A stretch of DNA of 64,000 bases from a virus (IMGVR_UViG_3300005573_001500), one strand, 5' to 3'. Positions 1-48,172 are shown, counted from the stretch's first letter. Numbers and translations are program-made. The notes: a model not told the origin generated them from the sequence alone.

Positions 1-217
1 TTCCCATAGGCAGGCTATCAGGAGGCAAGGAGAGGTATTTTATGCTTCCATTAGTTATTACAGAGCCAAAGAAAGAGTATGGTTGTACTGGAAAGGTTTT
101 GTATGGCATTTTGAATGGTATTGTTTGTGCTTTAATTGAAATATCATAATGCATCATTGACATTATTAGAACAGTAAATAAGCAAACTGTTGCAAGCATC
201 TTTTTGTAATCTCTCAT
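1..217 (-). CDS. Secreted/membrane protein, N-terminal part only (runs off left edge)
   Basis: Translated by hand: ATG at 217 after GGAGGTG; MRDYKKMLATVCLFTVLIMSMMHYDISIKAQ (signal peptide-like); open to position 1. Confidence 0.75.
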   Translation of the reverse strand, partial: MRDYKKMLATVCLFTVLIMSMMHYDISIKAQTIPFKMPYKTFPVQPYSFFGSVITNGSIKYLSLPPDSLPMG

Positions 218-231
218 TCTAAACACCTCCA

Positions 232-250
232 TTTTTTTTTTTTTTTTTTT
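232..250. repeat. T19 homopolymer (A19 in the 5' leader of the minus-strand gene)
   Basis: 19 consecutive T between TATA-like TTTAAATA (about 278-285, minus) and RBS GGAGGTG (224-230). Confidence 0.9.
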
Positions 251-290
251 CCTAAATAAAAATTAATCAACTTTGAATATTTAAAGTTAT

Positions 291-752
291 TTATGATATA
301 ACAAACGTTAACTGTTGACTTTCACTAGGCTGTAAAATGTTGTCTCCTTCAAAAACAGATTTAAACGCATATGTTCCTGAACTCTGAAATGTAAATGTAA
401 AAGTGCACGAACCTTCTTCAACCCCGAAGACAGTGTATTTAATGTCAACTATTTGCCAGTAAGTGCTGTTCTCAAGCTTCATTTCAAGTACTATAGGCTT
501 GTTGTTTAAAGCTATCTGCTCTAACTGACTCTTGAGTGAAGAAAGTTCACTTGGAATAGTAGTTGTAAGTATTGCTTTCATAGTTATGCTTTCGCCAACA
601 GTTAATGTTGTAGAATTAGTGTTTGCAGTCAGAGTTAATGTTGAAGGAAAGCTATATGAAGAAACATACGGTCTAACAAAACTTTCACCGAAATAGCCTA
701 TTCCAATGCCTATCAACAATCCTAACAGGAATATTAGCAACTCACGCATCAT
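291..752 (-). CDS. Membrane-anchored Ig-like protein
   Basis: N-terminal TM; C-terminal GTYAFKSVFEGD..LQPSES typical of bacterial-type Ig folds. Confidence 0.65.
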   Translation of the reverse strand: MMRELLIFLLGLLIGIGIGYFGESFVRPYVSSYSFPSTLTLTANTNSTTLTVGESITMKAILTTTIPSELSSLKSQLEQIALNNKPIVLEMKLENSTYWQIVDIKYTVFGVEEGSCTFTFTFQSSGTYAFKSVFEGDNILQPSESQQLTFVIS

Positions 753-1741
753 TCTTTCTTCACCTTCCTCCTATACCAAACTGCAAGAATAGCTATAACA
801 ATAATAACAATAGCAATAGTCCAAGTGACAACATAATTATCAGCCGCTTTTAAAGCATCGTAGCCTGTAGGGTCATACTGCCCGATAAAAGCTTCCGGGT
901 CATCTCCTTTGCCATATCTGAAGAAGTCAACTGTTGCAGATATTGTTTGGTTAATGTATTTATCAGCATCTTTAGTTGAAATAATTGGACGAATAAAATC
1001 TGAAAAACCTCTGTAAATGCTCCACCATCCTCCAGCTTGAGGAATCACATAACCTTTAGTGTAAAACTCGCCTCTTGAAAAAATAGTGTTAAAAGTGGCA
1101 GCTTCATCTGTAAAACTATCTTGTGCAGTTCTACCTAAAACCTCGTCAGCCCATTCGACAGGACTCAGATAACCGCCTTTCCAATCCCTATAGAAATATT
1201 GACAACCGTCAAAAGGTCTATTCCAAAGTTCAAAAGAATGAATAGACATAGCTTGCGTTAACGGGTCTTCACTTATAAGACGTGTTTCTAACAGTCCTTC
1301 ACTTAACGGGTGGATAATATTGTTTTGAACAAATGTTCCTCTAATCTTCTCAGGAATCCAGAAATTATGAGTAATGCTGTCTTGAAGAAGATGTATAGCT
1401 ACTCCGAGAGCAAAAGCTTTAGCTCTATCATCGCCAGATTCTTGTGCTTGACGCCAAAGTTCATCTTGAAAAGTCCAAGCATGAGTAGCTCTATAAGACT
1501 TCCATTCAGTATAATAGTAAATAACAGTAACATCAGGATACATCAAACCACACAAGAACCAATCTTTATTCTTGTAGATTATATTCGTCAGAGTAGTGTT
1601 ACCTGCAATCTTCAAAGCCCTCTCCGTAAAGTAAATGTGGGTGCAGGGACCCCATCCATAGGTTTTCTCCGTTTTAGCGGAAAAAGTGACAGTTAAGAAC
1701 AGTAGTGCTAGAATTGCTATTGTAATTATTCTATTCTTCAA
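749..1741 (-). CDS. Zinc-dependent phospholipase C / S1-P1 superfamily protein with C-terminal TM anchor
   Basis: Signal peptide then WGPCTH; GLMYPD; THAW; GVAIHLLQDSITH; HPLSE (tri-zinc ligand pattern); TM + RRKVKK tail. Confidence 0.8.
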   Translation of the reverse strand: MKNRIITIAILALLFLTVTFSAKTEKTYGWGPCTHIYFTERALKIAGNTTLTNIIYKNKDWFLCGLMYPDVTVIYYYTEWKSYRATHAWTFQDELWRQAQESGDDRAKAFALGVAIHLLQDSITHNFWIPEKIRGTFVQNNIIHPLSEGLLETRLISEDPLTQAMSIHSFELWNRPFDGCQYFYRDWKGGYLSPVEWADEVLGRTAQDSFTDEAATFNTIFSRGEFYTKGYVIPQAGGWWSIYRGFSDFIRPIISTKDADKYINQTISATVDFFRYGKGDDPEAFIGQYDPTGYDALKAADNYVVTWTIAIVIIVIAILAVWYRRKVKKE

Positions 1742-2942
1742 CTTTCTTTTCTCTCCTACTTATTAACCTTATGAAAAGGAAGAATATTATTATGCCTAAC
1801 GGAATGAAAACCCATGGGTTAGTTATGAAATCCCAAATGCGAAAACCTGTGCTCACTGTCGCTACTTTAATATAGTTTTGGTCCAACGGTACAAAATATG
1901 TTCCTATAGCTACTCCGCCAGTTAAACTTTTAAGTCTAATAATATACCATGATTCTGCAAGCGTGAAATATGCTCTAATCTTGTTATCTGCTAACTGTTC
2001 AACTTTAACATAGCCGTTTGTTCTTGAAAACTTTACACCTGAAGGGGATTCAATCTCAACATCTATAGAAGAAAAAGCAACATTTAACGGATTACCTCTA
2101 GCGTCTGTAAACTCAACATCGAAATACTTACAATTAGGTTTTATTTCAATTGACTGTCCAGTGTTTACTCCTGGAATTATAGTTAATGATTCACCTGTTT
2201 GAAAACTGTATTTTGTAGCTACAACTGGTTGACGAATATCTACTGTGAAACTAGTTGGTAACACGTAGTAGTCTGAATAATACGCTTTTACTGTTAAAGT
2301 GTATCTTCCTAAATAGTCATTGTTTATATCGCCCACAACTTCATAAATTCCAGTAGAATTTGTTGGCAAAACAGGTGGCACATACACAGAAGTGTCGGGT
2401 GGCGCTCCACTTGGAGGTATTACAGATACTTCCCATCTCGAAGGAACAGAAACATAAGACCATGCGGCTGTTTCTTTAGCTCTGACATTAATTGCAATAT
2501 CTTTTCTGCTTAAAGGGTCTATGAATTGAACTTTGCTTTTATCAGGGTCTAAAACTTCAACTACTATTCCCGGAACGCATTTAACATATGCTGTATAATC
2601 TGCAAAAGCTCCCTCTGTACTCTTAAACGTTATTGTTTGCACACCAGAATATGTAGGCTTAACTTTGAAAGTTACTTTTCCAGTGTTTGGGTCAGAATAA
2701 AATGTATTTCTTCCGCCCCATTGAAATGTTATTTCTACTGCAAACTGTGTTCCAGTAGCTGGTTGACCATCTGTTCTCTTTATTGTTGCAGATAATGTTG
2801 ATTCAATGTTAACCGGTATAGGAGTGTAGTCTGCAAAGTCTGCTTGTATATAATAGTCGTAAGCGTAAACTAAACGAACAGAAAAAGGGAAAAGTATAAG
2901 CAGTAGTGTTGCCAGTAGAATCAATAGTATTTTTGTTTTCAA
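1731..2942 (-). CDS. Surface protein, Ig-like repeats, C-terminal TM
   Basis: Signal peptide, beta-rich body, ITNPWV-TM-RREKK tail; last domain paralogous to that of 2939..5119. Confidence 0.7.
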   Translation of the reverse strand: MKTKILLILLATLLLILFPFSVRLVYAYDYYIQADFADYTPIPVNIESTLSATIKRTDGQPATGTQFAVEITFQWGGRNTFYSDPNTGKVTFKVKPTYSGVQTITFKSTEGAFADYTAYVKCVPGIVVEVLDPDKSKVQFIDPLSRKDIAINVRAKETAAWSYVSVPSRWEVSVIPPSGAPPDTSVYVPPVLPTNSTGIYEVVGDINNDYLGRYTLTVKAYYSDYYVLPTSFTVDIRQPVVATKYSFQTGESLTIIPGVNTGQSIEIKPNCKYFDVEFTDARGNPLNVAFSSIDVEIESPSGVKFSRTNGYVKVEQLADNKIRAYFTLAESWYIIRLKSLTGGVAIGTYFVPLDQNYIKVATVSTGFRIWDFITNPWVFIPLGIIIFFLFIRLISRREKKVEE

Positions 2943-5119
2943 TGCCTTCTCCTCCTGAATATCAGTATTAAGAATATCAGTGCTATAAAGCCTATCACGA
3001 ACGGGTTAGTTAGTATTGATGGAATAGGTGAAGGAGCCTCTGAAGATGTAACTGTAAATGTTGACGGGTCTTGATAGAACGGAAGCCCTGAATATTTAAC
3101 AACTACCTTATATGTTCCAACTTTGTCGAATGTGTAAACTATTGTTATCGCTTTATCTACATCGTTGAAGTAGTATTTATCTTTTAACTCGTTTGCTGTG
3201 CTCATTGAAACCCCATTCGGGTCTGTTATTATAACTTCAATGTTCTGCTCTGTTATTCCAGTATAAGGTTGCCCATACTTGTCTCTGAAAGCGATTGTAA
3301 ACGTGTTCTTTCCTACAGTAACACTTGAAGATTCAACAATAGCCATAACAGTAGGAGCTGTCATTTTAGCTGTTGCTGTTAAAGTTCCGTCAATAAATCC
3401 TGTTTTTCTGAAAGTTATAGTTAACGTTAAAGTGTGTTCTGTATAGCTTTTGTAATAATCGTAAACTTTAGCTTTAAAAGTGAAAGTACTAGCTGAAACG
3501 CTATAACTGGTATATTCAAACGGTATTGTTGTTCCCTTCTCATCTTTTAACGTTATACTATAAGCACTAAAATCTGATATTGGTTCACTCATAGATTCTT
3601 TATCAACAATTGAACCAGTATATATGAAATCGTAGTCCCCAGGCTTGTAAACTTGCTCATAATTGAAACTTATAACCTTTACTGCTAACTGTGGCAACAC
3701 GTATAAATTAAAACATGCTATTATTTTTCCTTCATATGAAACAGTCATGTTGTAAGGCGAATATTTAGACGATGGAGGTGTAAGGATTTCGATATTAGCA
3801 ATTCCATCAGTCCCAGTAACTCCTCCTTGAGTGTATCCGACATAGTTTGCTTCTGATTTAGGCATAATTATAATTGTTAATCCGATATTACTCATAGGTT
3901 GACCTGTTGTTTTCGATTTTGCACAGAGTGTTATTATTACATTAGTACTTGGAGGTACCCCTGATGGGTATTGTGAACACCACCAATCAACAATTATTTC
4001 TGGACTTGTAACAGTTATTGTAACAGTAGCTGTATCAGTTGTTCCTTCATCATCAGTTACTGTCAAACTAGCTACATAAGTGCCGGGACTCTGATATGTA
4101 TGAGATACTCTAACACCTGAACCGGTGGCTTTATCGCCGAAATCCCATTTATAAGAAACTATTCCCTTAGTTGGGTCTGTTGAAGGATTATCTGGGTCAT
4201 AAGAACGATTCGCATCAAAAGTTACAGTTAAAGGTGCAGACCCGCTTGTAGGATTAGCGTCTATCAAGGCAATTACATTATAACTTCCTATTTTAACTGT
4301 TTCTGTAGTTGAACCCTGACCTTCTAAATCATCTGTTACTGTTAACGTTACAGTTGCTTGTCCGCCTTTATTGAAAGTATATGTAAAAGATGCGGTATAA
4401 TAATAGTGAGTTGTATTATAAGTATCTATTAAAGTCCATTTATAAGATTTAATTTGTCCATCTATGTCTTGTGATTTGCTCCCATCAAACGTTACTATTT
4501 GATTCACCATTGGATTTTGAGGAGAATATTCAATCACGGCTGTAGGCAGTCTATTCGTTTCAATAGTTATTTGTCCCCCACTTTTCAAGTTTAAATTTTT
4601 TGTTGTAGAGTGATATCCGCTTTTGCTAACAGTAACAGAGTACAAAACGCTTACATCCGTTCTTAAAACTGGGTAATAACTTAAAGTACACGTCCCATCT
4701 TGAATCGTCACATTAGAACATTTTGTTTTTTCAACAGTTAGCCCGCAATGGTCTATTACCCAAGTCATATCTGCCATTGTGTACTTTCCATCACCGTCCA
4801 TATCTGCCCATGTTACATCTACTTGTCCAAAAGTCTGATTCATATATTTAACATCATAAGTGTCTATAACACCGTCTGTTGCAGGCTGATTTGTGTTTTT
4901 ATCCCAGACATCACCGTAGTAATGGAAAAGAGAAAGTGTAGCAACTGCTTCCACAGTTGCTCCTGAAACTTTGTTTCCAAAATCGTCAATAACTTGTATC
5001 TTTCCACTTGAGACTAATGTAAACATGGGTAATATTCCAGAAATCACTAAAACCCCAATTACAGCTATTATTAGAACAATCACCAGTAAAATTGATAATT
5101 TCTGATTCATTTCTACCAA
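2939..5119 (-). CDS. Surface protein with dockerin-like EF-hand pair and two PKD domains
   Basis: DGVIDTYDV and DMDGDGKYTMADM loops; PKD signatures VTFDGSKSQDIDGQIKSYKW and YKWDFGD...SHTYQSPGTYVASLTVTDDEG; LTNPFV-TM-RRRRH tail; likely start ATG at 5110. Confidence 0.85.
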   Translation of the reverse strand: MVEMNQKLSILLVIVLIIAVIGVLVISGILPMFTLVSSGKIQVIDDFGNKVSGATVEAVATLSLFHYYGDVWDKNTNQPATDGVIDTYDVKYMNQTFGQVDVTWADMDGDGKYTMADMTWVIDHCGLTVEKTKCSNVTIQDGTCTLSYYPVLRTDVSVLYSVTVSKSGYHSTTKNLNLKSGGQITIETNRLPTAVIEYSPQNPMVNQIVTFDGSKSQDIDGQIKSYKWTLIDTYNTTHYYYTASFTYTFNKGGQATVTLTVTDDLEGQGSTTETVKIGSYNVIALIDANPTSGSAPLTVTFDANRSYDPDNPSTDPTKGIVSYKWDFGDKATGSGVRVSHTYQSPGTYVASLTVTDDEGTTDTATVTITVTSPEIIVDWWCSQYPSGVPPSTNVIITLCAKSKTTGQPMSNIGLTIIIMPKSEANYVGYTQGGVTGTDGIANIEILTPPSSKYSPYNMTVSYEGKIIACFNLYVLPQLAVKVISFNYEQVYKPGDYDFIYTGSIVDKESMSEPISDFSAYSITLKDEKGTTIPFEYTSYSVSASTFTFKAKVYDYYKSYTEHTLTLTITFRKTGFIDGTLTATAKMTAPTVMAIVESSSVTVGKNTFTIAFRDKYGQPYTGITEQNIEVIITDPNGVSMSTANELKDKYYFNDVDKAITIVYTFDKVGTYKVVVKYSGLPFYQDPSTFTVTSSEAPSPIPSILTNPFVIGFIALIFLILIFRRRRH

Positions 5120-6114
5120 ACCTCTTCTTTCTTTCTTACTATTATTATTCCAGCAATAGCTAGTATTCCTCCAGCAAAAATCAGAGCATGTCCTAAAGTG
5201 AAAGCGGGTGATTCAGGTATTTTAATCGTTACAGATATTTTGTTTAGCTTAGTAGATGTTGACGCTTCAAGTACTATATTTGTAATCTCAGAAGATAATT
5301 CAATAGTTCCAATCCAAGTATAGTTCCCAACATATGTTAAAGTATGTGAAGTACCTGGAAAAATCGCTTTAACAGCAATACTTGACGCAGATATTGACGT
5401 GTCTTCACAGATAAATGTTATGTTAACCTTTCTTTCTGAAAGCTCAATCATCATATTATCTATCACTATTTTATCGTTAATTTTCCATGTTCCTGAAAGC
5501 TGTTCATAGTCTTCAATATTAAAAGAACCGCTTATCACTGCAAGATTTCCAGCTTCGTCTAAAACTGAAAAACTAAACGTTATATTTTCCTTTGCTGAAT
5601 ATACTGATGTGTTTACGGAAACGGCGAAAGTTGTTATTCCATAATAATCCATCAGTATTAGATAATCGCCTGTGTCAATAATACCATCTGAGTTCAAATC
5701 ACACTCTGATTTATATCTAGAATCACCATAGCTGGAACCCCAAGTTGAGTTAAGAATGCTCAAATCCGTGTTATCAACCACTCCATCTGTGTTAATGTCA
5801 GGGTACTTCTGTCCAGAAGGCATTATTAAACGATGTGATATTTGCGTGTAAGGCGTTAATATTAATGCTCTTTGCCCATATTTGTCAAAATAAGAAACAG
5901 CTGATATTCCTGATTTATCTCTAGCGTAGACGATTATTTCGTTTAACTCGCCAGGTTTATATGTCATTTTATCACATGGAAATGTATATATTACTTTAGG
6001 CGGAGTAGTGTCAACAACTTGAAGACTCAAATATCCTGCTACATTTAAAGCTCCAACAGCAATCAAAACTATCCCAAGAATTGTTAAGACATATCCAACA
6101 TACTTTCTATTCAT
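5113..6114 (-). CDS. Dockerin type I domain membrane protein
   Basis: DINTDGVVDNTDL...DLNSDGIIDTGDY duplicated Ca-binding loops; N- and C-terminal TM. Confidence 0.8.
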   Translation of the reverse strand: MNRKYVGYVLTILGIVLIAVGALNVAGYLSLQVVDTTPPKVIYTFPCDKMTYKPGELNEIIVYARDKSGISAVSYFDKYGQRALILTPYTQISHRLIMPSGQKYPDINTDGVVDNTDLSILNSTWGSSYGDSRYKSECDLNSDGIIDTGDYLILMDYYGITTFAVSVNTSVYSAKENITFSFSVLDEAGNLAVISGSFNIEDYEQLSGTWKINDKIVIDNMMIELSERKVNITFICEDTSISASSIAVKAIFPGTSHTLTYVGNYTWIGTIELSSEITNIVLEASTSTKLNKISVTIKIPESPAFTLGHALIFAGGILAIAGIIIVRKKEEVW

Positions 6115-6120
6115 TTCTTT

Positions 6121-6351
6121 CTATCTCCTTAATATTTCTTTCAAGAATTTTTCCAATTCATTACGAACAGTACCTATGAGTTCAGAAAAAGAAGAAGCAT
6201 GAACAGCTCCTTCAGCAAGTTTCTCTTTACCGTAATAGAATTCTACTCTATATGTTCCAGGAAATATTCGTTTTATTTTTCCATAAAGTGGTTTATCATT
6301 AACTTTTATTGGATGCTCAATAGTAAGCGTTTTAACAGACACTAATACCAC
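6121..6351 (-). CDS. Hypothetical protein
   Basis: 76 aa ORF overlapping the upstream stop, in operon. Confidence 0.65.
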   Translation of the reverse strand: MVLVSVKTLTIEHPIKVNDKPLYGKIKRIFPGTYRVEFYYGKEKLAEGAVHASSFSELIGTVRNELEKFLKEILRR

Positions 6352-8522: not shown

Positions 8523-8564
8523 CTATTTCCCCTCCAAACAATTTTTATCAAATATTTCTTTCAT

Positions 8565-9326
8565 TTATCTCACCATCATTCTTGCAACTATATCATACAA
8601 TGCGTGAATAACTATCGGAACAGTAATATCTTTACATTGAACCATGAAATACAAAAGCCAAAAACCTCCAACATAAGCTGTGAGTGTCCAAATAATCATT
8701 TCTGGACCAGTATAACTCATAATAGTGTGCAGTCCAGCCCATAAAGCATTACTTATCATTCCACCTATCCAAGGGCTTTTAACAAGTTTAGCTAACAAGT
8801 AAGGTATTATCCCTCTAAAGACTAATTCTTCTCCTGGAGCTACGAGTAACCCTAATTTGAAAACGTCATATAACAAGTTAGCATCTATTCTCATTGTTTG
8901 TGCAAAAGACATGAAGTTTACATAAACTGGAGCTAAAGGAGTGTACAGTTGAGGTTCTGTTGGGAACTCTGTTGTGTATGGTTTCCAGAGTAGTATTGAA
9001 AACTGTTTAGTTGAAATTATCTGAAAAAGTATAGCTGTAAGCAAAAGAGCAAACAATCCCACTAAAGTATATAAAATATACGTTAAAGCTTCTTTCTTTT
9101 CTTTCCAATCAGTAATTATACCAGATAAAGCGAAAATAGTTATACTCCCTAAAGTCATACTAGTGAAAAGAAATATCGCAATAACTTCAAAAATGTTAGA
9201 CATAGCTAAATGCAACAATATTCCCACAACTGCAAAAGAAAGAGTCAAAATAATAACGTAAAGCAACGGACTGTTATCAATTATTTCTTTGAAATCTTCT
9301 ACATCGAATTCGGGGATTAACTCCAA
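8565..9326 (-). CDS. CPBP (Abi/CAAX type II) family intramembrane glutamic protease
   Basis: Multi-TM; APGEELVFRG (EExxxR), ALWAGLH, VIHALYD motifs. Confidence 0.9.
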   Translation of the reverse strand: MELIPEFDVEDFKEIIDNSPLLYVIILTLSFAVVGILLHLAMSNIFEVIAIFLFTSMTLGSITIFALSGIITDWKEKKEALTYILYTLVGLFALLLTAILFQIISTKQFSILLWKPYTTEFPTEPQLYTPLAPVYVNFMSFAQTMRIDANLLYDVFKLGLLVAPGEELVFRGIIPYLLAKLVKSPWIGGMISNALWAGLHTIMSYTGPEMIIWTLTAYVGGFWLLYFMVQCKDITVPIVIHALYDIVARMMVR

Positions 9327-9352
9327 TTTTATTCTATCCTATTTTGACTTTT

Positions 9353-9559: not shown

Positions 9560-9596
9560 TTAATCCAACACTCCTAGTTCTCCTCTTAAAACATCT

Positions 9597-9830: not shown

Positions 9831-9855
9831 TCCTTTGTATTATCTTAACTCCAAA

Positions 9856-38718: not shown

Positions 38719-38720
38719 TT

Positions 38721-39785: not shown

Positions 39786-39958
39786 TAGTGACACCCGAAC
39801 CTTACTATATGCTCGTAACACTGAAGACATATCACTATAAAATGTCTTCCAGAATAAACTTCTATTCCCCAATCAGTATCCCATTTAGCTGTGACAGTGT
39901 GTTCTGATGGAATAATTTTCTCTTTTATTGTTTTTCCGCAAAGATAACATTTTAGCAA
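39785..39958 (-). CDS. Zinc-finger micro-protein, 57 aa; not in ORF track
   Basis: TTG start after GAGGT; CYLCG...ICLQC. Confidence 0.65.
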   Translation of the reverse strand: MLKCYLCGKTIKEKIIPSEHTVTAKWDTDWGIEVYSGRHFIVICLQCYEHIVRFGCH

Positions 39959-39993
39959 TTTTATAACCTCTTTTTCTTTTTCTTCATAAAGTT

Positions 39994-40708
39994 CTACTCG
40001 AAATCAAATTTTATTTCTTCTTGTTCTTCAACAAAGTTAAACTGAATTTCCTCTTTTTTTTTCTATCAATTCAATCTCTTTAACCATAAACGATTGAAGA
40101 TTTATAAAAGACGGTTTTTCTGCGAAAAGCTTTGACAAGAAAAGTTTAAAGTTTATAATGTTGAGTTCTAGAATTTCAAAAGTTGATAAGCCTGGATATA
40201 AGTTTGAAATGGTTTGATGCTTATTCCAATCTTGCCATATTTCTCCGTGATTTAAAGTTAAAAAGGGAATTGTAGTGTCAAAACCGTTAAAATAGTAAAG
40301 GACACGTGGAGATATTCCTTCTCTTACTCCGAGAAACCATCTTTTCTTTCCCTCTGTTAACTTCAGAAAAGTCTGCAAATCATAGTCACGCCGGTAGTAA
40401 GGCATCCCGACCCATTCAAAATCGCTAAAATCCTCCTTTACACTATGTAGAGGAAAAATCCAATTAATGTCTGGATATTGATTTTTGAATTTTCGCATTT
40501 CCGTATAACATAAATCTGGAGCAACTGCAAAGTGAATTAGACCGCAACCATATCTACGAAGTTCTCTCTCCAACCATTTTATATCAGGCTTTCCCTTTTT
40601 TTCTATAAATTTATTATCTAAAAACTGTGGGTATGTTAGAAATCCATGTCTATTGACTATTTTACGTATTTCCCGTAAAGTTTCCATTGTGGGAAGAGCT
40701 ACAATCAT
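39994..40708 (-). CDS. TGT/DpdA-like TIM-barrel protein (DUF6610-like); apparent +1 shift in A9 near the 3' end
   Basis: FLDNKF, FAVAPD, IFPLH, WVGMP, WFLG, GFDTT, HGEIW follow TGT-fold motif order; removing one A at 40054-40062 gives 237 aa ending EEIQFNFVEEQEEIKFDFE. Confidence 0.55.
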
Positions 40709-40731
40709 TTCTGTAACCTCCTTTTACTAAC

Positions 40732-41838
40732 TTATAACCTCTTTTTCTTAAATCTGTCTTCACATATACTAAAATATGAACACGTTTCAACCGTACACAA
40801 AGAACCTCTCGGTCTACCAATAGGCATCTTCATGTTCTTTATGAAATCGCATAGTCTATCACATACTTGTACAAATCCTTTAGAATCACATAGTACTGGT
40901 AACACTTGAAAGTATCTGCTTAACTCTATTTCACCTATCACGTTAACGTTTACTCCATAAAACTGTTCAAGCAAATACTTATAACCACCTAACTGTAATT
41001 GAGTGTCATAAAAAGAGCCTTGTTCTGTTTCAGATAACAATAATGTTCTAGTTGTTTTGACATCTCTAATCACAAAAGTGTTATCGTTTAATCTGTAAAG
41101 TTTGTCTATGTGTCCTACAAGAAGCAAATTCACATCATAGTTACTGTAATAGCCTACTGTTTTCAGTTCTGTCCATTTTCTACTAACTATTTTATGATAT
41201 TCGCCTTCATGTTCAATATTGTGGCATATACGATAAGCATTTACTTCAGCAAACTCTTCTAAAACTGTGTTAAACATTCTTTCTAATGTAGACTGTATTA
41301 AATCTTCAGGTACAGATTCTTCAACTGTTTCCAACGCTTTAGTTAAAAGTTCATTTTCTATTATTTTTAGTATTTCTTGTTGTATTAAATCTCTGTCTGG
41401 ATATAGTTCTTTGAATCTTTTATAGTTGTTTTTGTTGTCTAAATATTCTGTTAGTAAATTGTCAATAGCATGTGTTAATGAACCTTCAAGCATAAAACTG
41501 TTTGTCACTTGTGGAACCCCATAAACGTTGTCGAGGTACCATGCTATGTCACAGTAGTTGAAAGAACATATGCTTGTTACCCTTTGTAGTATATACGGCG
41601 TTTTCAGTTTACATTTGTTGCAGACTTCTCTTTTTATAAACTCTAACTGTTCAGAGCTTAAATGAGTTTGATTAACTGCACATACATAACACATGTCAGA
41701 TTTAACATTATTAGGGTACATTCTGTTCTGTGATATAGCCCTTTTAATGCTTACTTCAACGATATTAAACAAGTAGTCTGGAAGCTCAACTGAAACAGAA
41801 CAACCATTCTGAAGTTTCAACTTTAAAACTTTCAACAT
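40732..41838 (-). CDS. Cas4-like/AddB-like PD-(D/E)XK nuclease with Fe-S cysteines
   Basis: YCDIAWY...EGSLTH...GHIDKL...RDVKT...QLQLGGY...C....CSYFSIC. Confidence 0.8.
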   Translation of the reverse strand: MLKVLKLKLQNGCSVSVELPDYLFNIVEVSIKRAISQNRMYPNNVKSDMCYVCAVNQTHLSSEQLEFIKREVCNKCKLKTPYILQRVTSICSFNYCDIAWYLDNVYGVPQVTNSFMLEGSLTHAIDNLLTEYLDNKNNYKRFKELYPDRDLIQQEILKIIENELLTKALETVEESVPEDLIQSTLERMFNTVLEEFAEVNAYRICHNIEHEGEYHKIVSRKWTELKTVGYYSNYDVNLLLVGHIDKLYRLNDNTFVIRDVKTTRTLLLSETEQGSFYDTQLQLGGYKYLLEQFYGVNVNVIGEIELSRYFQVLPVLCDSKGFVQVCDRLCDFIKNMKMPIGRPRGSLCTVETCSYFSICEDRFKKKRL

Positions 41839-42078
41839 TCATTCCCTCAATACATTTTTCCTCATTAATTCTATCAGTTTCAATTTCTTTATGAAAATTT
41901 CAAGATTTCTCTGATTACTCTTTCTTGTTCTAGTTCTAAGTAGATTTCCACAGTAAGGACATTTAGGTTGACCTCGAATATTCCATTCTACAGTATCAAA
42001 ACTACGCCACTTTCCACATCTGCCACAATAAAGATGTGTAATGTAAAAGTTTTTTGCTCTTTCTAGTAGCTTTTTCAT
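41839..42078 (-). CDS. Zinc-ribbon protein
   Basis: CGRCGKW...CPYCGNLLRTR; ATGA-coupled start at 42078. Confidence 0.7.
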   Translation of the reverse strand: MKKLLERAKNFYITHLYCGRCGKWRSFDTVEWNIRGQPKCPYCGNLLRTRTRKSNQRNLEIFIKKLKLIELMRKNVLRE

Positions 42079-42212
42079 AATGCTAACTTCCTTGCTGTAT
42101 GCCCACATCTAGGACAAATATAGAGTATATATTCACAATCGTTAAACTGGTCAAGTCTATATTCTTCTCTCATTTCTGAACCACATTCTGGGCAGACTTC
42201 TTTCTTTTTCAT
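42075..42212 (-). CDS. Zinc-ribbon micro-protein, 45 aa; not in ORF track
   Basis: MKKKEVCPECGSEM...YICPRCGHT. Confidence 0.7.
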   Translation of the reverse strand: MKKKEVCPECGSEMREEYRLDQFNDCEYILYICPRCGHTARKLAL

Positions 42213-42580
42213 TTTATTTTCTTCCTTAATAAATTATAAATTTTAGTAGCGTAGTATCTTGTCATGTAAACGTTTTTGTATGTTTCGAACACGTTATTGT
42301 TTATAATAGACTGTTTAGCATCTGTTAACAGTTTACTTATAGGCGTGCTGTTCTTTTCCATTTCATTTTGTTTAGGTAAATACTGTTCATATTCTTCTCT
42401 GTTAAACATTAATGATAAAACAAATAAAGTGTACTCTAACTCTGAAAGTATATGCCAAAAATGGTTTTCTAATGCTTCTTTATCTTTTGTAGTGTTTATT
42501 ATTGAAAGTGAATTGTTATAGTAGTTTAATGCTGTGTCTAATGATTTCAAAACTTTATTGTTATAAGACATTTTATACAC
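42209..42580 (-). CDS. Helical hypothetical protein
   Basis: 123 aa; WHILSELEYTLFVLSL helix bundle. Confidence 0.65.
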   Translation of the reverse strand: MYKMSYNNKVLKSLDTALNYYNNSLSIINTTKDKEALENHFWHILSELEYTLFVLSLMFNREEYEQYLPKQNEMEKNSTPISKLLTDAKQSIINNNVFETYKNVYMTRYYATKIYNLLRKKIK

Positions 42581-42950
42581 TCTGCATTAGATTTTGAACA
42601 TACAAATCGAAAAGTATACATGCTCCTATATGAGTGCAGAGTTGAACCATTCTTTCTTGACCGTATTTGCCATAGAAACAGCTACACCATCCACGATTAT
42701 GACTGTACAAATAAACTCTATAATATGAAAATTTACTTTCATACTTGTCTAGTTTCTCGTTTCTATAAACTTTAAACTCTTTACGATTTCTATGTTTACC
42801 TAAATAGACAACATCATATATTCTCATAACACTTCTGTCAAACCAGTTCTTCTCTTTTTCAGGAAACAATTTTAGAAAAGTGTCTAATGCTTTAAAGAAT
42901 GCAGATTCATTAATTGTTTTCTTGTCAAGTCTGAAAAGTATTTCAGTCAA
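42573..42950 (-). CDS. SWIM zinc-finger protein
   Basis: YRVYL...WCSC...LCTHI (CxC-xn-CxH). Confidence 0.8.
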   Translation of the reverse strand: MTEILFRLDKKTINESAFFKALDTFLKLFPEKEKNWFDRSVMRIYDVVYLGKHRNRKEFKVYRNEKLDKYESKFSYYRVYLYSHNRGWCSCFYGKYGQERMVQLCTHIGACILFDLYVQNLMQSV

Positions 42951-42966
42951 ACTTCTTCAGCCTTTT

Positions 42967-44262
42967 TCACTCTATGTTCACTTCCTTCATAGCACGTTTA
43001 ACTTCTTCTTCAGAATACAAAGGCTTATTATCAATCCACCATTTGAAATGCTCATTTAAATACTGAACAGTCTGTTTCTCATTATAACCTAAATAATTCA
43101 ACAAACTAACCATAAAATGCAATCTACTACCTAAATCTCTATATTCGTCTCCAACTTGTATTCTCTTACATAAACTATTTATTAACGCTTTAACAAAAAT
43201 GACATGTTCATACCTAACTTTAAAGTCTAAATTTAGAAAAGCGAAAGCTCTAAGAATTCTTTTAACATCTTTTGTTGCTCTTAATCCCGGCTTTTCAAGT
43301 CTTATCTGTTTTAGACTGTTTTCTAGTTCTATAATATGCTGTTCTACTTCGTTTCCGCTATATTCTATTGTCACTTTCTTTTTAGAGTTTAAATGACTAA
43401 GCATTTTGCTAACTTCAAAATAAAACTCTGGACTATCATCTAACAAGTTATTTCTTATTCCATGTCTAATGTACAAGTTTTCACAGTCTAAGTTCTCCCA
43501 TACTGCAAGAACACATCTACTGTTCCAACCTACGTCTGTTAAGATATACTTGTTGAAATTGTCTGTTGTACATGCAAGTATTAAACCATGCCTTACACGG
43601 TTATCTGGAGAACCTATGACATAATGACCGCTATACTGGTCTCCTCCTCTGTAAAAGCCTTGCTCTAATATTGCATTCCAAAACTGTAAAAGTTTTTCTA
43701 AGTCTGTCTGATAAAATATTGATTCACCATCTGTTATAATGTCAACTCTATCTGTTATTCTATCTTCAGCTTCACTAACATCTATAACAGATTCACCGTC
43801 ACGCCATTTAGCACGCTTATCATATTTCACTCCATGTGGTAGTCTTTTGCCTACTGCTTTTAAGAATTTTCCACAATGCATTAACATGTAATCTGCATAT
43901 GTTGTTCTATTCATATAATTAACGAATGGTATAGTGCAGAACTGTGACAGTATCGTTGTTTTTCCTTGTCCTACTGGTGCTCCGAAAGCTAGATTAAATT
44001 GTCTATCCATGTTTATGCACATACTTGACAGTTGAGAAGCTACCAGTAACGCTACGTGTCCAGTTGTTGGCAGTTTTGTTTCAAATAGATTGTAGAGTTT
44101 AACTGCATTTTCGCATGTTTTTATTATTTCTTCTGGCAGATATTTGTTTTCTATTTTTGTTGTTGTTTCTGTTTTCTGTATTAGTTTTTTAGATAAGAGT
44201 TCACCTGTTAAAGGTTCAGGAACTTCAGACTTTCTAGTTGTAATAATAGGCATTTTATTCAA
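42967..44262 (-). CDS. MCM-like AAA+ ATPase/helicase lacking the MCM N-terminal domain
   Basis: Walker A APVGQGKT, atypical Walker B IITDGE, ILACT, GWNSRC arginine finger, GLRATKDVKRI...A.L...V..EHV sensor-II lid. Confidence 0.6.
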   Translation of the reverse strand: MNKMPIITTRKSEVPEPLTGELLSKKLIQKTETTTKIENKYLPEEIIKTCENAVKLYNLFETKLPTTGHVALLVASQLSSMCINMDRQFNLAFGAPVGQGKTTILSQFCTIPFVNYMNRTTYADYMLMHCGKFLKAVGKRLPHGVKYDKRAKWRDGESVIDVSEAEDRITDRVDIITDGESIFYQTDLEKLLQFWNAILEQGFYRGGDQYSGHYVIGSPDNRVRHGLILACTTDNFNKYILTDVGWNSRCVLAVWENLDCENLYIRHGIRNNLLDDSPEFYFEVSKMLSHLNSKKKVTIEYSGNEVEQHIIELENSLKQIRLEKPGLRATKDVKRILRAFAFLNLDFKVRYEHVIFVKALINSLCKRIQVGDEYRDLGSRLHFMVSLLNYLGYNEKQTVQYLNEHFKWWIDNKPLYSEEEVKRAMKEVNIE

Positions 44263-45136
44263 CTCCTATGTTTGATATTTTAAATTCTATCTTCTCTTTA
44301 GACTCGTAAAAGTTTTCACCTACTTTTCTACGTGTTATAACCATATATCTCTTCATTTCTCCTTGTTCGTCTATAACTTTCATAAAATAAAGCCAGAGTT
44401 TAGCCAGGTATTCAAACCTTCTACCTACTCCAGCAAACAGTTCTGGTTCACTGGCGAGAGTTTTCATTTGTCTTTCAACGTCTTCTTTCTTTTTACTTAC
44501 TTGTTTTGCATGGCAAACTATTATAACTATTATTTTGTTGTCATGTGCTGATTCAAATAGTTTGTAAACTAAGTTTTCACGTTCATTAGTTATGAACCAT
44601 TTATCATACTGTTTAGCTGGGTCTGTAAAGTCTTTCATAAACACTGGAGTAAAACTGTCTATTACAAGCATGTCCGGTTTTTCTAGAGATATTATTCTTG
44701 AAACATCATCAAACAGTTTCTTCCAATCTAGTTTTTCAGGGTAAACAAAAGTTTTGTACAGTAAATTGTAATCGAATGTCCAATTGTTACTTTTATAGAT
44801 TTGTATTATTCTGTCTGGGTGTACCCCGTGTTCTGTGTCGTAGTATATTACTTTCATTCCTTTTTCTAAAGCGTTAAAAGCTAAGTTCATGCAACTGCTT
44901 GTTTTTCCAGTTTCTGGGTCTCCATAGAACAAGTTTATTCCGTTTTCTATTGTTATTTTTTCTGCTAGTCTTGGACTTGTAAATGTTATTGTTCTATACT
45001 GATATTCTAATACTGGTTTTCTAAATGATGATTTAAACTGTGTTTTCAGTGTTTGAGAAACTGTTGAAATATTAGAAAAAGAAGAAGTGTTTTGTTTGAT
45101 GTTTTCTTCTGGTTTTTTATTTGCTACTATTGGCAT
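44255..45136 (-). CDS. RadB/RadA-like RecA-family ATPase
   Basis: GINLFYGDPETGKT, IYYDTEHG..PDRI, LVIDS, VIIVCH. Confidence 0.85.
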   Translation of the reverse strand: MPIVANKKPEENIKQNTSSFSNISTVSQTLKTQFKSSFRKPVLEYQYRTITFTSPRLAEKITIENGINLFYGDPETGKTSSCMNLAFNALEKGMKVIYYDTEHGVHPDRIIQIYKSNNWTFDYNLLYKTFVYPEKLDWKKLFDDVSRIISLEKPDMLVIDSFTPVFMKDFTDPAKQYDKWFITNERENLVYKLFESAHDNKIIVIIVCHAKQVSKKKEDVERQMKTLASEPELFAGVGRRFEYLAKLWLYFMKVIDEQGEMKRYMVITRRKVGENFYESKEKIEFKISNIGVE

Positions 45137-45161
45137 TTCTGTTCACTTTAGAACTTTTTGT

Positions 45162-46634
45162 TTATTCTACGAGTGAAATGAACATAGGTGTTATTGTTAA
45201 ACCTTCACTTATTCTGCCTCTAGGCTCATTGTAAGTCATTATGCCGAAACAGAGTATAGTCTTGTCAACACTGTTACTTATTATGCCTTCGTCTAATCCA
45301 AATGGATTCTCATATGGAAGCTTTATTTTAACAGCATACACTGGAATATTAGGGTCACTTCCATCATGCACAGCTAAGAAGGCTCCTGTTCCTTGTCCCC
45401 ACTCGTTTATCTGTTTTATTGTAACGTATATTGCGTCTGTTATTTCTTTTGTTGGTGATTCTTTAGCTTTGTCTATTGCTTCTCTTATTGTTATCGGTTC
45501 AAACACTTTATGTGTTCCAGCTATTGGTATTGCAGGTAAATCAGCTATAGGCTCAATTTTAGAAATTAAAGGCATATCACTACTATAAGTGCTCACATCT
45601 CTCAAGAACGGTGGAAAAGTCATAGCTATTAGTCTTCCTTCTAGTTTTAGTTCTGGTATTCTGTAGCATCTGTTTATTTTTAATCCTTCTATTGACTTGT
45701 CAGCTAACACTTCTTTGTATTTCAAGTCTTCATTTTCTCTATACAAGAATATTAAATGATAGACTCTCCTTCTAATGAACTGTATAATGTTATGTTTACT
45801 AGCTTCATTAAAGAGTATGTGTGCTATTAATGCTCCCGTTTTTGCATGTATTTTCTGTTTTAGTTGTTCGGCTTCTTTCTTATAACGTAGAAATAGTGTG
45901 TCTTTGTCAATATTGTAGACTTTATGTGCTAATGCTTCAAGCCATTCTAAATGTTTACTAGTTATATACTCATATCCTTCTATTTCTTCGATAGCTTCAG
46001 TTACTGGTACAGAAGGTGCAGTTGTTGGTTGTGGCTGTTCTGGTACTGCTGGTTTCACTTCTTTCATCATTTTTTCAAGAGGTACCGTTTCTTTCGGAAT
46101 AGGCAACACACATATTAGAACATCTTTAGGTACATTAAACTCTTTTTCTAACATTTCGTATGCTTTCTGAACTGGTATTCCTTGGCGCATTAGTTCTTGA
46201 AATCTTACAACTACTTGACTCATATCTACAGTTGGTATTTGTTCTTTCTTTTTCTCTTCTTTTGGTTTCTCTTCAACTTTAGCTTCAGCAAACTTTGTTA
46301 AAGGCACAGTTATCTCTGCAACTTCTTTAACTTCCTCTTTAGGTTTCTCCTCTTCTTCAGCAAACTCTAAAGATATTTCTTCTTTGCCTCTTAGAAAATC
46401 AGCAAACTGTTTGATACAATCGTTCAATTCATCTTCAGACACAGCAAACACTGGAACTCCATACTTGTCTTTTGCTTTTGACAAGCTTACAAAGAATTTC
46501 TGTGCAAACTCTTCTGGTTCTCCTCTGATGAGTATTGCTGTTGTAGTTTTTCTAGGTTTAACCATAGTTATAGATGTTCCGTCATCTGACAAGTGTATTT
46601 CTACTTTGTCTTGCCATGTGAATGTTCTAACCAT
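45162..46634 (-). CDS. Large protein with acidic linker and possible C-terminal OB fold (ssDNA-binding candidate)
   Basis: Glu/Lys/Pro linker; C-terminal beta pattern IYVTIKQI...FLAVHDG...TILCFG; located in the replication operon. Confidence 0.35.
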   Translation of the reverse strand: MVRTFTWQDKVEIHLSDDGTSITMVKPRKTTTAILIRGEPEEFAQKFFVSLSKAKDKYGVPVFAVSEDELNDCIKQFADFLRGKEEISLEFAEEEEKPKEEVKEVAEITVPLTKFAEAKVEEKPKEEKKKEQIPTVDMSQVVVRFQELMRQGIPVQKAYEMLEKEFNVPKDVLICVLPIPKETVPLEKMMKEVKPAVPEQPQPTTAPSVPVTEAIEEIEGYEYITSKHLEWLEALAHKVYNIDKDTLFLRYKKEAEQLKQKIHAKTGALIAHILFNEASKHNIIQFIRRRVYHLIFLYRENEDLKYKEVLADKSIEGLKINRCYRIPELKLEGRLIAMTFPPFLRDVSTYSSDMPLISKIEPIADLPAIPIAGTHKVFEPITIREAIDKAKESPTKEITDAIYVTIKQINEWGQGTGAFLAVHDGSDPNIPVYAVKIKLPYENPFGLDEGIISNSVDKTILCFGIMTYNEPRGRISEGLTITPMFISLVE

Positions 46635-46980
46635 TTTTTGTTTTTCTCCTTTTCTTTTTCATAAACGGAGAGCTTGAATGCTGTTTTAACCATTTGAGTA
46701 TCGTTATAATTTCATTTTTCAATTTCTCTTCATCTGAAGAATGCAACAACTTAATCGGAATACCAAGAATAATGTCGTCTGCTGTTAGAACCATCTCTGA
46801 CAAATCGTTCTCTTCAGCTTTAAAACCAAACTCTTTAGGAATTGTCAGAACATACTGATTATACTGCTTACCCTTGACGTTCTTTATGCTTTTAGTGATT
46901 TTAACTTTCTTTATCGTTGGAACATACACGACTTCTTTCTGAGACAACGTTAGCTCTCCGTTTAGTGAATGTGAATTCAT
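46627..46980 (-). CDS. AbrB/MazE-like DNA-binding protein
   Basis: KGKQYNQYVLTIPKEF; first gene behind the promoter at about 46987-46997. Confidence 0.5.
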   Translation of the reverse strand: MNSHSLNGELTLSQKEVVYVPTIKKVKITKSIKNVKGKQYNQYVLTIPKEFGFKAEENDLSEMVLTADDIILGIPIKLLHSSDEEKLKNEIITILKWLKQHSSSPFMKKKRRKTKNG

Positions 46981-47106
46981 AGTAAAAGTATATAAAATTT
47001 TACTAACTAAACGTGTATAAAGAATGATTATTGAAAACTAGATTTTTAACATAAAAATGTTAATATAGATAAAAGTTCATGTTAATTTTAATGTTTCTTT
47101 AATGTT
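46981..47106. promoter_or_regulatory. Promoter with flanking inverted repeats and phased ATGTT half-sites
   Basis: AGTAAAA/TTTTACT (46981-87, 46998-47004) bracket the TATA; TTAACAT-N4-ATGTTAA (47046-47063); ATGTT at 47057, 47079, 47091, 47102. Confidence 0.55.
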
Positions 47107-47110
47107 CGTT

Positions 47111-48172
47111 TTACTTCAATTTGTTTTTAAGATAAACTTCACTTATGAAGTTGATTCCATATTTTGAGAACGCTTCTAATTCAACTTTCTTTTTGAGTTT
47201 GTCCCATAGTCTTAGCTGTTCCATTATGAATGGGTCGTTTTTGCATCTTACGTCTTTCATTAAGTCGTATAGTCTTTTTGTGTCTTTGTCTGTGAATTTT
47301 CCTTTTTTAGGGTCTACTGGTAGTTTATAGTCTATTATGTCTTGTGGATATATGCCTATCCATTTTGCATTCATAACATTTAATCCTTTAACATGTGCGA
47401 GAGAGATACTGTTATACTTAATTGTTAAAAATATTGACAGTCCGTAGGGGTCAGAATCCGTTAACACAAATACTGGTAATTTGAACTGTTCACTTAACCT
47501 TCTAACTAGTATTCTACAGTTTCTTGGCGGTTGTCCTTCACTGAAAACTAATAAAGCATTATATTTCTTATAAACACCGTCTTCTACGAATCTTCTGAAG
47601 ACTGCCTGTTTTTCAGCTATTATTATTTTGTCTGCATTTACTTCTAAGAATTCTGTGTTACTTGTTAGTTCTGGTCCTATTGCTAAACCGTCAGGATGTT
47701 CGTTTAAACTGTATATTTTGTCTGTGTGTGGAATCCAAGGTCTAGGTTGAACATATCTGAATTTTGCATCTCCGAATATTACTGCTCGTTCTTTCGGGTA
47801 AATGTTGAAGTTTTCTCTTGTTAATCCTGTTAATGCTTCTAAGTCTTCTATTATACTGTTACTTTCATGTTGTTCTTGAAAAGCAATATCTTCAAAACCC
47901 ATACTAGTGTAGTAGATGTCTCTTAAAGTTGTTGTTCTATTTGTTGACAGTAATTCTTTATTAACATACCAGATTAGCCAACATAATTGTGCAAAAGGTT
48001 TAACTGTTGAAAGTTTACCGGCACTTCTAACAAACTTGTGAGAGCCTAATGTTAAGCCTTCTTCCGAAAGTTTAACGTTTTTAGCTGTTCTATCTGGAAC
48101 AAACAGCTTAGGAATTTCTTTTCTACTTAATTGTTCATAAACAGATTCTGCAACTTTAACAATACTATTCAT
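47111..48172 (-). CDS. top6A: DNA topoisomerase VI subunit A / Spo11 homolog
   Basis: TLRDIYY catalytic Tyr, EQHESNSIIEDLE, IIAEKQAVF and LTDSDPYG Toprim motifs, KVELEAF. Confidence 0.95.
   Translation of the reverse strand: MNSIVKVAESVYEQLSRKEIPKLFVPDRTAKNVKLSEEGLTLGSHKFVRSAGKLSTVKPFAQLCWLIWYVNKELLSTNRTTTLRDIYYTSMGFEDIAFQEQHESNSIIEDLEALTGLTRENFNIYPKERAVIFGDAKFRYVQPRPWIPHTDKIYSLNEHPDGLAIGPELTSNTEFLEVNADKIIIAEKQAVFRRFVEDGVYKKYNALLVFSEGQPPRNCRILVRRLSEQFKLPVFVLTDSDPYGLSIFLTIKYNSISLAHVKGLNVMNAKWIGIYPQDIIDYKLPVDPKKGKFTDKDTKRLYDLMKDVRCKNDPFIMEQLRLWDKLKKKVELEAFSKYGINFISEVYLKNKLK

Follow-up and report, generated by a model that had tools for sequence, protein, structure and literature searches.

Right-hand part of a large hot-spring archaeal mobile element with a HerA/VirB4-type ATPase and no recognised capsid gene

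Among the described systems closest to the element reported here, pleolipoviruses and pR1SE transfer membrane-wrapped DNA without a capsid, by means of membrane proteins and a P-loop NTPase, and Borgs are giant, AT-rich, linear genomes with long inverted terminal repeats, pervasive tandem direct repeats, long one-strand gene runs, many surface proteins and ORFans, and replication genes of their own. The integrative and conjugative elements (ICEs) of Thaumarchaeota, with a median length of 64 kb, are defined as a class by a VirB4 and VirD4 pair, VirB6, pilus genes and TFIIB; the integrated elements of Thaumarchaeota lack a relaxase and have varied replication modules that may include a family B DNA polymerase (PolB), a primase and a type IA topoisomerase (PMC6563490). 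The chromosomal import systems Ced and Ted comprise a minimal archaeal VirB4/HerA-like ATPase, a polytopic membrane protein and a hairpin protein with two transmembrane (TM) segments, parts that diverge past sequence recognition between lineages (PMC9905601). The Fsx1 (fusexin) elements of Haloarchaea are insertions exceeding 50 kb in which HerA/VirB4-type ATPases occur together with surface proteins anchored in the membrane; they carry XerC/D recombinases and have been proposed to move in a conjugation-like, cell-fusion-dependent manner (PMC9259645). Outside the classic crenarchaeal viruses, little is known of the mobile elements of hot-spring archaea. Here we describe one such element, part of which was encountered in a 64,000-nucleotide stretch of DNA filed as viral (IMGVR_UViG_3300005573_001500; "the window" is this whole stretch).

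Positions 1-48196 of the window are the right-hand part of a large double-stranded DNA archaeal element of hot springs, and we put the probability that they form part of a mobile element of a new, undescribed family at about 0.9. That the block is mobile, and not ordinary chromosome, is supported by an allele of the flank, 99.9% identical, that lacks it; by a summed contig depth three to six times that of the flank; by the sporadic distribution of its ATPase; and by an element-specific PolB clade that stands apart from cellular polymerases. An initial annotation, made by a model from the sequence alone, had proposed an archaeal mobile element in the form of an enveloped virus or a vesicle/conjugative element, and these observations bear out the first part of that proposal.

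The right border lies between 48196 and 48197, 25 nt beyond the start codon of the topoisomerase VI subunit A gene (Top6A) at 48172. Two contigs from other samples (L025, JGI, 31 kb; L026, Logan, 25 kb) match the window at 99.9% from 58541 and 57065, respectively, down to exactly 48197 and then diverge; contigs of the hot-spring runs X2, X3 and X4 likewise diverge from the window at 48197. Across the junction, the window has a 129-amino acid (aa) open reading frame (ORF) at 48554-48168, the first 119 residues of which are 100% identical to the N-terminus of a 1358-aa helicase (P0056). This helicase is intact in L025 and L026, where it is preceded by an intact 380-aa TGT gene and followed by MZB, PLDc_2 and further genes, and the empty-site frame in runs X2-X4 reads on as ..IITAPTATGKTEC, the helicase Walker A motif. 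Because the contigs with the intact helicase diverge exactly at this point, the element, or whatever DNA lies to the left of 48197, breaks the gene at codon 120, and element-free alleles exist. In this assembly, the interrupted gene is the helicase of a deazaguanine-type defence island.

The block differs from its surroundings in composition and organization. Its GC content is 0.327 (vs 0.374 in the right flank), its coding density is 89%, and the minus strand has 68 of its 76 ORFs of at least 50 aa; the other eight, on the plus strand, overlap longer genes of the opposite strand and resemble shadow frames. It is divided into four modules, for surface proteins, a HerA/VirB4-type ATPase, micro-ORFs and replication (Table 1), so that the AT-rich, one-strand, modular coding of the initial annotation was confirmed, in the order it had given. 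No tRNA genes were found in the 64-kb window or in eight loci, no ribosomal or metabolic genes within the 48-kb block, and no long direct or inverted repeat resembling att sites or termini in the window, where TRF reports four trivial tandem arrays in 64 kb. Of the limits previously set, 1-48172, the right one fell within 25 nt of the junction; the left one, and with it an extent of 48 kb, was not upheld, as the element is much larger. Its left border lies outside the window, because the gene starting near 232 runs off the edge and relatives extend further. In a relative (L020), a 401-aa protein shares 46% identity at its N-terminus with the product of this truncated gene, and its own gene is followed by a 1278-aa gene, a 196-aa gene and ~20 micro-ORFs. 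An 18-T run occupies 233-250, between two surface genes, and two near-identical short contigs from other samples end near 195-227, within ~40 nt of it; these ends are probably assembly breaks at the poly-T run.

Over 10 contigs (JGI, ENA, Logan and a single metagenome-assembled genome, MAG, of GTDB) have the same gene order. By product length, the conserved order is 221, 122, 96, 152, 390, 426, 198, ATPase, 141 and 152 aa, continuing with 325, 293, (139), CPBP, 726, 76, dockerin and PKD. The most extensive relative is an 85-kb Logan contig, of which ~67 kb were read by walking along this contig and its 52-kb sibling. All genes in these ~67 kb lie on one strand, in the order type IA topoisomerase (TopoIA), ATPase module, surface genes, 1278-aa gene and micro-ORFs, followed by a methylase, more unknowns, a C25 peptidase, Top6B and Top6A. 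The Top6A is 78% identical to that of the window and is followed, in window order, by homologs (57-79% identity) of the 490-aa, RecA-like, 431-aa, 125-aa and Cas4-like proteins, and a PolB homolog (P0060, 66%) lies on the same contig. The 85-kb relative thus encodes topoisomerase VI with its A and B subunits, alongside a type IA topoisomerase (L023 10441-11949 and 13516-14619; L001 516-2282); in the 64-kb window, tblastn detected no Top6B, and the window element has Top6A only. In a distant relative (L005, whose ATPase is 33-44% identical by stretch), PolB lies directly upstream of the ATPase module, which indicates that the replication and ATPase modules belong together. Given the shared gene order and the presence of PolB on the same contig, the window has the same circular order as the 85-kb relative, and the full window element is probably of the ~85-kb size class. 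Intein domains (PF14890/PF14528) occur in the ATPase relatives P0012 and P0013 and in the PolB relatives P0131, P0136, P0142 and P0160; the window copies of both proteins have none.

The family is rare in databases. Only 13 near-length relatives of the ATPase turned up in 5.8 billion clustered proteins; at E<1e-30, a set of 1.84 billion representative proteins yielded 11 clusters. Scans of IMG/VR (2.9 million contigs) with the ATPase, PolB and the ATPase alignment yielded no relative, the ATPase had no tblastn match in INPHARED or PLSDB, and the PolB reached only ~24% identity, with T4-like phage polymerases. The stretch itself is present at least partly in 18 runs of 15 studies, nearly all of them hot-spring or sediment metagenomes, and six runs hold at least half of its words.

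In four hot-spring metagenomes (X1-X4), the summed contig depth to the left of ~48.2 kb exceeds the flank value by a factor of 3-6 (for example, 270-430 vs 44-106 in X2, and 18-50 vs 5-11 in X1), a measure that mixes strains and is not a copy number. A coverage ratio against the host had been suggested as a check on the mobile-element proposal; the ratio to the flank came out in its favor. The element is commoner than its insertion site in the same communities, and in three of the four runs (X2-X4) the empty allele carries the flank at flank depth. That the flank is overwhelmingly element-free in these runs would also be expected of a free extrachromosomal replicon, a large plasmid or a small Borg-like element that is not integrated, with the join at 48197 being an assembly artefact or a rare recombinant. 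The lack of an integrase inside the element, the Borg-like coding on one AT-rich strand, and the 85-kb relative, which has only element genes over ~67 kb and whose contigs from two samples begin at the identical base, point in the same direction. However, the two versions at the junction part at a single base, with no repeat there that would explain a chimera; the TGT gene is frameshifted only in the window version, as expected from decay after disruption of the helicase; and tandem repeats, a Borg hallmark, are essentially absent. We regard a free replicon as an unlikely explanation of the window.

At the center of the conserved core module lies the 1075-aa ATPase. It has the features by which membership of the FtsK/HerA superfamily was judged, namely a Walker A motif (GIGKTGSGKT at 401), a Walker B-type hhhh[DN]E motif (LNEAQ at 653), an R-x-G...TQ sensor/arginine-finger segment (RGLGIYVIALTQ at 689) and a predicted RecA-like core; the three motifs are invariant in the family alignment. 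An AlphaFold2 (AF2) model of the core, of middling confidence (pLDDT 62), retrieved HerA in Foldseek (8xau_E, E 2.7e-7). In VIA-align, the model matched HerA (4d2i_B, Z 15.4), DndH-C (Z 14.0) and VirB4 (4ag5, Z 13.8), with HerA and VirB4 tied within ~1.6, and gave lower scores with FtsK (Z 9.9), TrwB (Z 9.0) and STIV2 B204 (Z 8.3); EccC and A32-like matches were also obtained. Distant sequence relatives carry DUF87, TrwB_AAD_bind and FtsK_SpoIIIE domains. The ATPase itself matched no VirB4/AAA_10 Pfam model, and neither its profile nor its C-terminus found anything among PDB sequences. As had been noted at the outset, an FtsK/HerA-superfamily ATPase thus occurs together with many membrane proteins in the absence of a recognisable tailed-virus or jelly-roll module.

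Several of the other core proteins are predicted polytopic or hairpin membrane proteins (Table 1). The last of them, of 152 aa, has TM segments and possibly a winged helix (Pfam E 0.04-0.2, sub-threshold). In its AF2 model, also of middling confidence, the 390-aa protein comprises a signal peptide, a pair of beta-sandwich domains, a long helical stalk and an anchoring TM segment. Its top Foldseek match is SlaB (8qox_B, E 7e-7), an S-layer stalk protein and the only chain that spans residues 32-309 of the model (VIA-align Z 11.4, rmsd 27 A); in the predicted structure, the likeness is one of architecture only. An atlas fold search with the same model gave generic matches only, and ESM Atlas look-ups of the 426-aa core protein and the 726-aa surface protein gave generic Ig-like leads or noise. 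Nearly all products of the surface module combine an N-terminal signal or TM segment with a C-terminal TM anchor. The 726-aa protein resembles generic Ig-like surface proteins of archaea; its identity falls to 27-28% between strains in which neighboring genes remain 85-95% identical. A 28-nt coding repeat (family D1) is common to the three Zn-ribbon paralogs of the micro-ORF block; in L001 and L009, one or two copies adjoin the gene of the basic 141-aa type that lies downstream of the ATPase.

The replication module is self-contained in outline. PolB retains intact motifs Exo I (DIE), A (SMYPN), B (NSSYG) and C (YGDTDS), and its best solved relative is Sulfolobus PolB1 (1s5j, E 3e-74). Its homologs form an element-only series at 95, 87, 66, 48, 48 and 44% identity, followed by chromosomal Bathyarchaeia PolB1 at 33%, and in a quick maximum-likelihood tree, with a long branch and skewed composition, the element clade falls outside all cellular PolB1 groups with full support. 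The 383-aa primase seems to join a PriS-like AEP domain to a PriL-like Fe-S C-terminal domain, as suggested by its motifs and by an NCBIfam PriL match (E 3.6e-7) far below the family cut-off; PDB sequence searches with it and with the 431-aa protein found nothing. In the translation of Top6A, RDIYY and DSDPYG stand as expected at the catalytic Tyr and Toprim sites.

Cells, too, have a PolB1-type polymerase, a primase, Top6A and RecA-like proteins, and these could be taken to mark a non-mobile chromosomal island of an AT-rich archaeon that provides cell-surface and DNA-repair functions. In one relative (L004), moreover, the ATPase module abuts GC-richer genes, namely an FtsX fragment, rpL35Ae, RuBisCO and an aIF-2B-like gene. 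This join was rejected as a chromosomal site, as it falls on the 3' end of a C-terminal remnant of TnpB (IS200/IS605 OrfB; L004 6500-6720; L010 1-125), exactly where another assembly breaks, and it may be insertion sequence-mediated or chimeric. An island is at odds with the element-free allele, the sporadic distribution, a PolB clade outside cellular PolB1 and 48 kb devoid of tRNA, ribosomal or metabolic genes; nor are the genes placed in ordinary chromosomal synteny in 400 sampled relatives. We consider this explanation largely refuted and highly improbable.

Capsid genes were sought in ~60 window proteins (most ORFs of at least 100 aa and a minority of the micro-ORFs of 50-99 aa) with Pfam, PHROGs and NCBIfam. 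No capsid, portal, terminase or integrase was matched in this set, in agreement with the initial annotation; a jelly-roll or other capsid fold was looked for structurally in two proteins only. Among the markers of Caudoviricetes (HK97-fold capsid, large terminase, portal), the only Pfam or PHROG match was to the "terminase" phrog_2666 (E 6e-6), which was rejected as it covers only the P-loop of the ATPase. For the 85-kb relative, precomputed Pfam annotation and a PHROG scan of ten unique ORFs likewise gave no capsid family, and its region corresponding to the DNA left of the window, where a capsid/terminase module might have been expected of a virus, has no such family. Neither 1-48196 nor the ~67 kb of the relative contains an integrase or recombinase, and no TraG, T4SS-DNA_transf or FtsK Pfam match was found in the scanned window ORFs or in the precomputed Pfam annotation of these ~67 kb. 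With respect to Varidnaviria, the ATPase belongs to the superfamily of B204 but has 1075 aa vs ~200-250 aa, and no double jelly-roll family was matched. Two-TM proteins and the 390-aa model have the architecture seen in spindle-shaped or pleomorphic viruses, but sequence, profile and fold comparisons tied them to no viral structural protein. Cas1, the casposon marker, had no match in the window scans, and PolB is of the PolB1-like, primer-dependent type.

These results leave room for a provirus. The archaeal virus concerned would be enveloped, pleomorphic or spindle-shaped, with capsid or nucleoprotein genes too divergent to be recognised; its HerA-type ATPase would serve to package the genome or to assemble virions at the membrane, and the surface module would supply spikes and a fusogen. 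Such a virus would account for the elevated depth, the many micro-ORFs with Zn-ribbons, the abundance of N-glycosylation sequons in surface proteins, the hypervariability of one of these (726 aa), the two-TM hairpin proteins of 57-73 aa, the +21 basic 139-aa protein and the spike-like 390-aa protein, with its ectodomain, helical stalk and TM anchor; in addition, the FtsK/HerA superfamily includes viral packaging ATPases, as the B204 and A32-like matches illustrate. On the other hand, no PHROG or Pfam structural family was found among the scanned proteins, IMG/VR (2.9 million contigs) and INPHARED yielded no relative, the ATPase exceeds known packaging ATPases 4-5-fold in size and is nearest to HerA and VirB4, the basic 139-aa protein is absent from the 85-kb relative, and the element is unlike all four described Bathyarchaeia virus families (PMC10541130). 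We therefore regard a provirus as rather unlikely, though worth keeping in view.

Instead, we tentatively favor, at slightly less than even odds, transfer without a capsid, by contact, fusion or vesicles, over an enveloped or spindle-shaped virion with an unrecognised capsid. We infer the mechanism and the roles of the surface proteins from gene content. The element would replicate with its own PolB, fused PriS/PriL-like primase, RecA-like ATPases, Cas4-like nuclease and Top6A. The conserved core would form a membrane-embedded DNA-translocation machine around the 1075-aa HerA/VirB4-type ATPase, in which small polytopic membrane proteins may take part and the tail-anchored Zn-ribbon and possibly winged-helix proteins are putative DNA binders; such a motor, surrounded by putative DNA binders that are anchored in the membrane, points to translocation of DNA at or across a membrane. 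The surface module may dress the donor membrane, or a membrane bud, and serve to bind and breach the recipient by means of the SlaB-like stalk protein, the PKD and dockerin adhesins, the hypervariable 726-aa protein and the membrane-anchored phospholipase C (PLC). Recognition and opening of the recipient envelope are suggested by this large, fast-evolving adhesin set together with the PLC. Transfer might thus resemble conjugation, cell fusion or plasmid vesicles.

Several points weigh against the proposal of an integrated, capsid-less element. The join between 48196 and 48197 may be an assembly chimera, as no bridging contig is at hand, and the depth difference shares the limits of strain-mixed contigs. 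No integrase or recombinase that would account for the insertion was found in 1-48196 or in the ~67 kb of the relative. With two proteins checked structurally, a capsid fold beyond sequence recognition is conceivable. Known archaeal conjugative elements differ in having what these scans did not find, namely a second, coupling ATPase (VirD4/TraG), a prepilin peptidase, FlaI/PilT and a recognisable VirB6; candidates like VirB6/CedA (the 7-TM 204-aa protein) and VirB2/CedA1 (the two-TM proteins of 57-73 aa) were identified by architecture only, with no family match. The hydrophobic hairpin proteins and the very basic 139-aa protein also fit a spindle-shaped, pleomorphic or enveloped virus, and viruses, too, typically have hypervariable surface proteins and numerous micro-ORFs. 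The most specific form of our proposal is doubtful: that these elements are archaeal replicons of a new lineage, either without a capsid or coated in an unconventional way, moving in a membrane coat of their own, with the HerA/VirB4-type translocase loading the DNA and the PLC opening the recipient. If true, it would define a mode of transfer between virus, vesicle and conjugation, with a deep-branching PolB1-like replisome that includes topoisomerase VI and a coat made of a SlaB-like stalk and lattice or adhesin proteins.

The gene set is archaeal (PolB1-like polymerase, PriS/L primase, Top6A, and TFB in the flank). An assignment to Bathyarchaeia, which had been called probable, found no such footing: it would depend on one ATPase relative in a MAG labelled 'Bathyarchaeota', another relative, identified by its PolB, is labelled Pacearchaeota, and the PolB clade lies outside Bathyarchaeia PolB1, in a tree that gives no host signal. 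The ATPase is carried by a single MAG; among 401 genomes sampled from the class of that MAG, one contained a match to the ATPase profile. That MAG (G001, with a 9.3-kb relative) lacks the 431-aa replication protein, and the flank helicase was not found in the 401 genomes of its class; neither result says anything about the host.

To the right of the junction, the flank, from 48725 to 60267 at flank depth in the metagenome runs, lies outside the element. Identity to L025 covers it as far as 58541; 58542-60267 lay outside that comparison. The HEPN gene, a nuclease gene, a 314-aa serine recombinase gene (56868-57809) and a TFB paralog are identical in element-free L025 (1-3499; window 55034-60267) and are a separate feature of the flank. 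A 504-aa serine recombinase gene (58753-60267) lies past the end of the L025 match, at flank depth. TGT is a single 380-aa gene in element-free contigs (L025 8674-9816) and two ORFs in the window (48725-49874); contigs of runs X2-X4 have one base fewer at 49235 and seven fewer at 48600. The frameshift may be specific to the element-carrying allele or an assembly error. Further right, the summed depth at 60009-62009 is 2-5 times that of the neighboring flank in all four runs, and contigs of X1 and X3 link 47000 to 60446 via 26 foreign letters, a joint that no shared k-mers explain. The depth rise at 60.0-62.0 kb and this joint may stem from a small module present in several copies or from a different arrangement of the element. 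Three further joints (44965 to 63166, 45327 to 63399 and 46645 to 63177) were taken as spurious, having sides of only 21-22 nt.

Table 1. Features of the 64-kb window, their coordinates and the basis of each assignment
Feature	Coordinates	Strand	Basis
Mobile-element part inside the window, continuing past the left edge	1..48196	minus	One-strand coding, GC, synteny, summed depth
Synteny of the block	1-48196		Relatives L001/L018/L020-L023, L004, L005, L009-L014
Secreted-protein gene, 5' part, cut by window edge	2..232	minus	Start codon, signal peptide, runs off window
Surface/envelope module	291..12333	minus	Pfam, TM prediction
Ig-like, 153 aa
Zn-dependent PLC	749-1741
403 aa
PKD x2 + dockerin-like domain	2939-5119
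Dockerin	5113-6114
Hypervariable, 726 aa	6342-8522
CPBP protease	8565-9326
Basic (+21), 139 aa	9856-10275
Sequon-rich, 293 aa
325 aa
Conserved core module	12863..22386	minus	Same order in L001, L004, L005, L009-L012, L017, down to 30% identity
Core order, first part: 221 aa (Zn-ribbon, tail-anchored), 122 aa (4 TM), 96 aa, 152 aa (3 TM), 61 aa, 390 aa
Core order, second part: 426 aa (N-terminal TMs), 198 aa, 59 aa, 1075-aa ATPase, basic 141 aa, 152 aa
FtsK/HerA/VirB4-superfamily ATPase, 1075 aa	13918..17145	minus	Motifs, fold matches
Type-I membrane protein, 390 aa	19211..20383	minus	AF2 model, pLDDT 60
Micro-ORF block, many proteins of 50-140 aa	22431..32258	minus	ORF list, TM, charge, Pfam
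Hjc-like	22620-23024	minus	Pfam
Three paralogous, very basic Zn-ribbon proteins	23336-23575, 26274-26699, 27316-27531	minus	Repeat family D1
7-TM protein, 204 aa	26700-27314	minus	TM prediction
Winged helix-turn-helix protein	28862-29278	minus	Pfam
2-TM hairpin proteins, 57-73 aa	in 22431..32258	minus	TM prediction
Family B DNA polymerase	32328..34721	minus	Pfam, E 4e-31
Rest of replication/recombination module	34959..48172	minus	Pfam, NCBIfam, AEP motifs, same order in 85-kb relative (64-79% identity)
RecA/Rad51-like (two)	34959-35906, 44255-45136	minus	Pfam
AEP primase with PriL-like C-terminus, 383 aa	38721-39872	minus	AEP motifs, NCBIfam PriL
Cas4-like PD-(D/E)XK nuclease	40732-41838	minus	Pfam
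Conserved unknowns, 431 aa and 490 aa	within 34959..48172	minus	Homologs in 85-kb relative
Top6A/Spo11	47111-48172	minus	Pfam, E 3e-47
Element/flank right junction	48196..48197		L025, L026 and contigs of runs X2, X3, X4
Flank helicase stub, first 119 codons of 1358-aa DEAD/Helicase_C gene	48198..48554	minus	Identity to P0056
Flank outside element: TGT/DUF6884/methylase cassette, HEPN, nuclease, two serine recombinases, TFB	48725..60267		L025 identity, depth, Pfam

The searches of IMG/VR, INPHARED and PLSDB indicate that standard virus and plasmid catalogues miss this family. Its self-contained replisome, outlying PolB clade and mobile topoisomerase VI bear on the origin of archaeal and eukaryotic replication genes, and the very large HerA/VirB4-type ATPase, in a conserved membrane module, is a candidate for a new DNA-transfer machine. 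The locus also offers a natural case of a mobile element breaking a deazaguanine-type defence island, with filled and empty alleles at hand, and a concrete test case for the spread of large capsid-less elements among archaea.

Compared with the described systems, the element is like the Thaumarchaeota ICEs and cryptic elements and the Sulfolobus conjugative plasmids in being large, in having a VirB4/HerA-type ATPase amid membrane proteins and in lacking a relaxase, and like the Thaumarchaeota integrated elements its integration is polymorphic, with empty sites. Unlike in the ICEs, however, its one ATPase is much larger and lacks a match to the VirB4 and TraG models of Pfam; the window scans revealed no VirD4/TraG, FlaI/PilT, prepilin peptidase, recognisable VirB6 or internal integrase; the TFIIB of the window belongs to the flank; and the surface-protein set is far larger and the coding strictly on one strand. 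Since, of the defining ICE genes, only VirB4 has a candidate counterpart here, the VirB4/HerA-like ATPase, the element should not be filed as an ICE. It has candidates for each architecture of Ced and Ted, which are chromosomal import systems. The Fsx1 elements provide a precedent for transfer by fusion, but no fusexin was identified here, the 726-aa protein being generic Ig-like and the 390-aa protein SlaB-like. The element resembles none of the four proposed Bathyarchaeia virus families (PMC10541130). With pleolipoviruses and pR1SE there is no sequence or profile link, and genome size and replication machinery are very different.

Borgs share with the element the AT-rich composition, one-strand gene runs, surface proteins, ORFans and own replication genes; the element is, however, ten times smaller, has almost no tandem repeats and inhabits hot springs.

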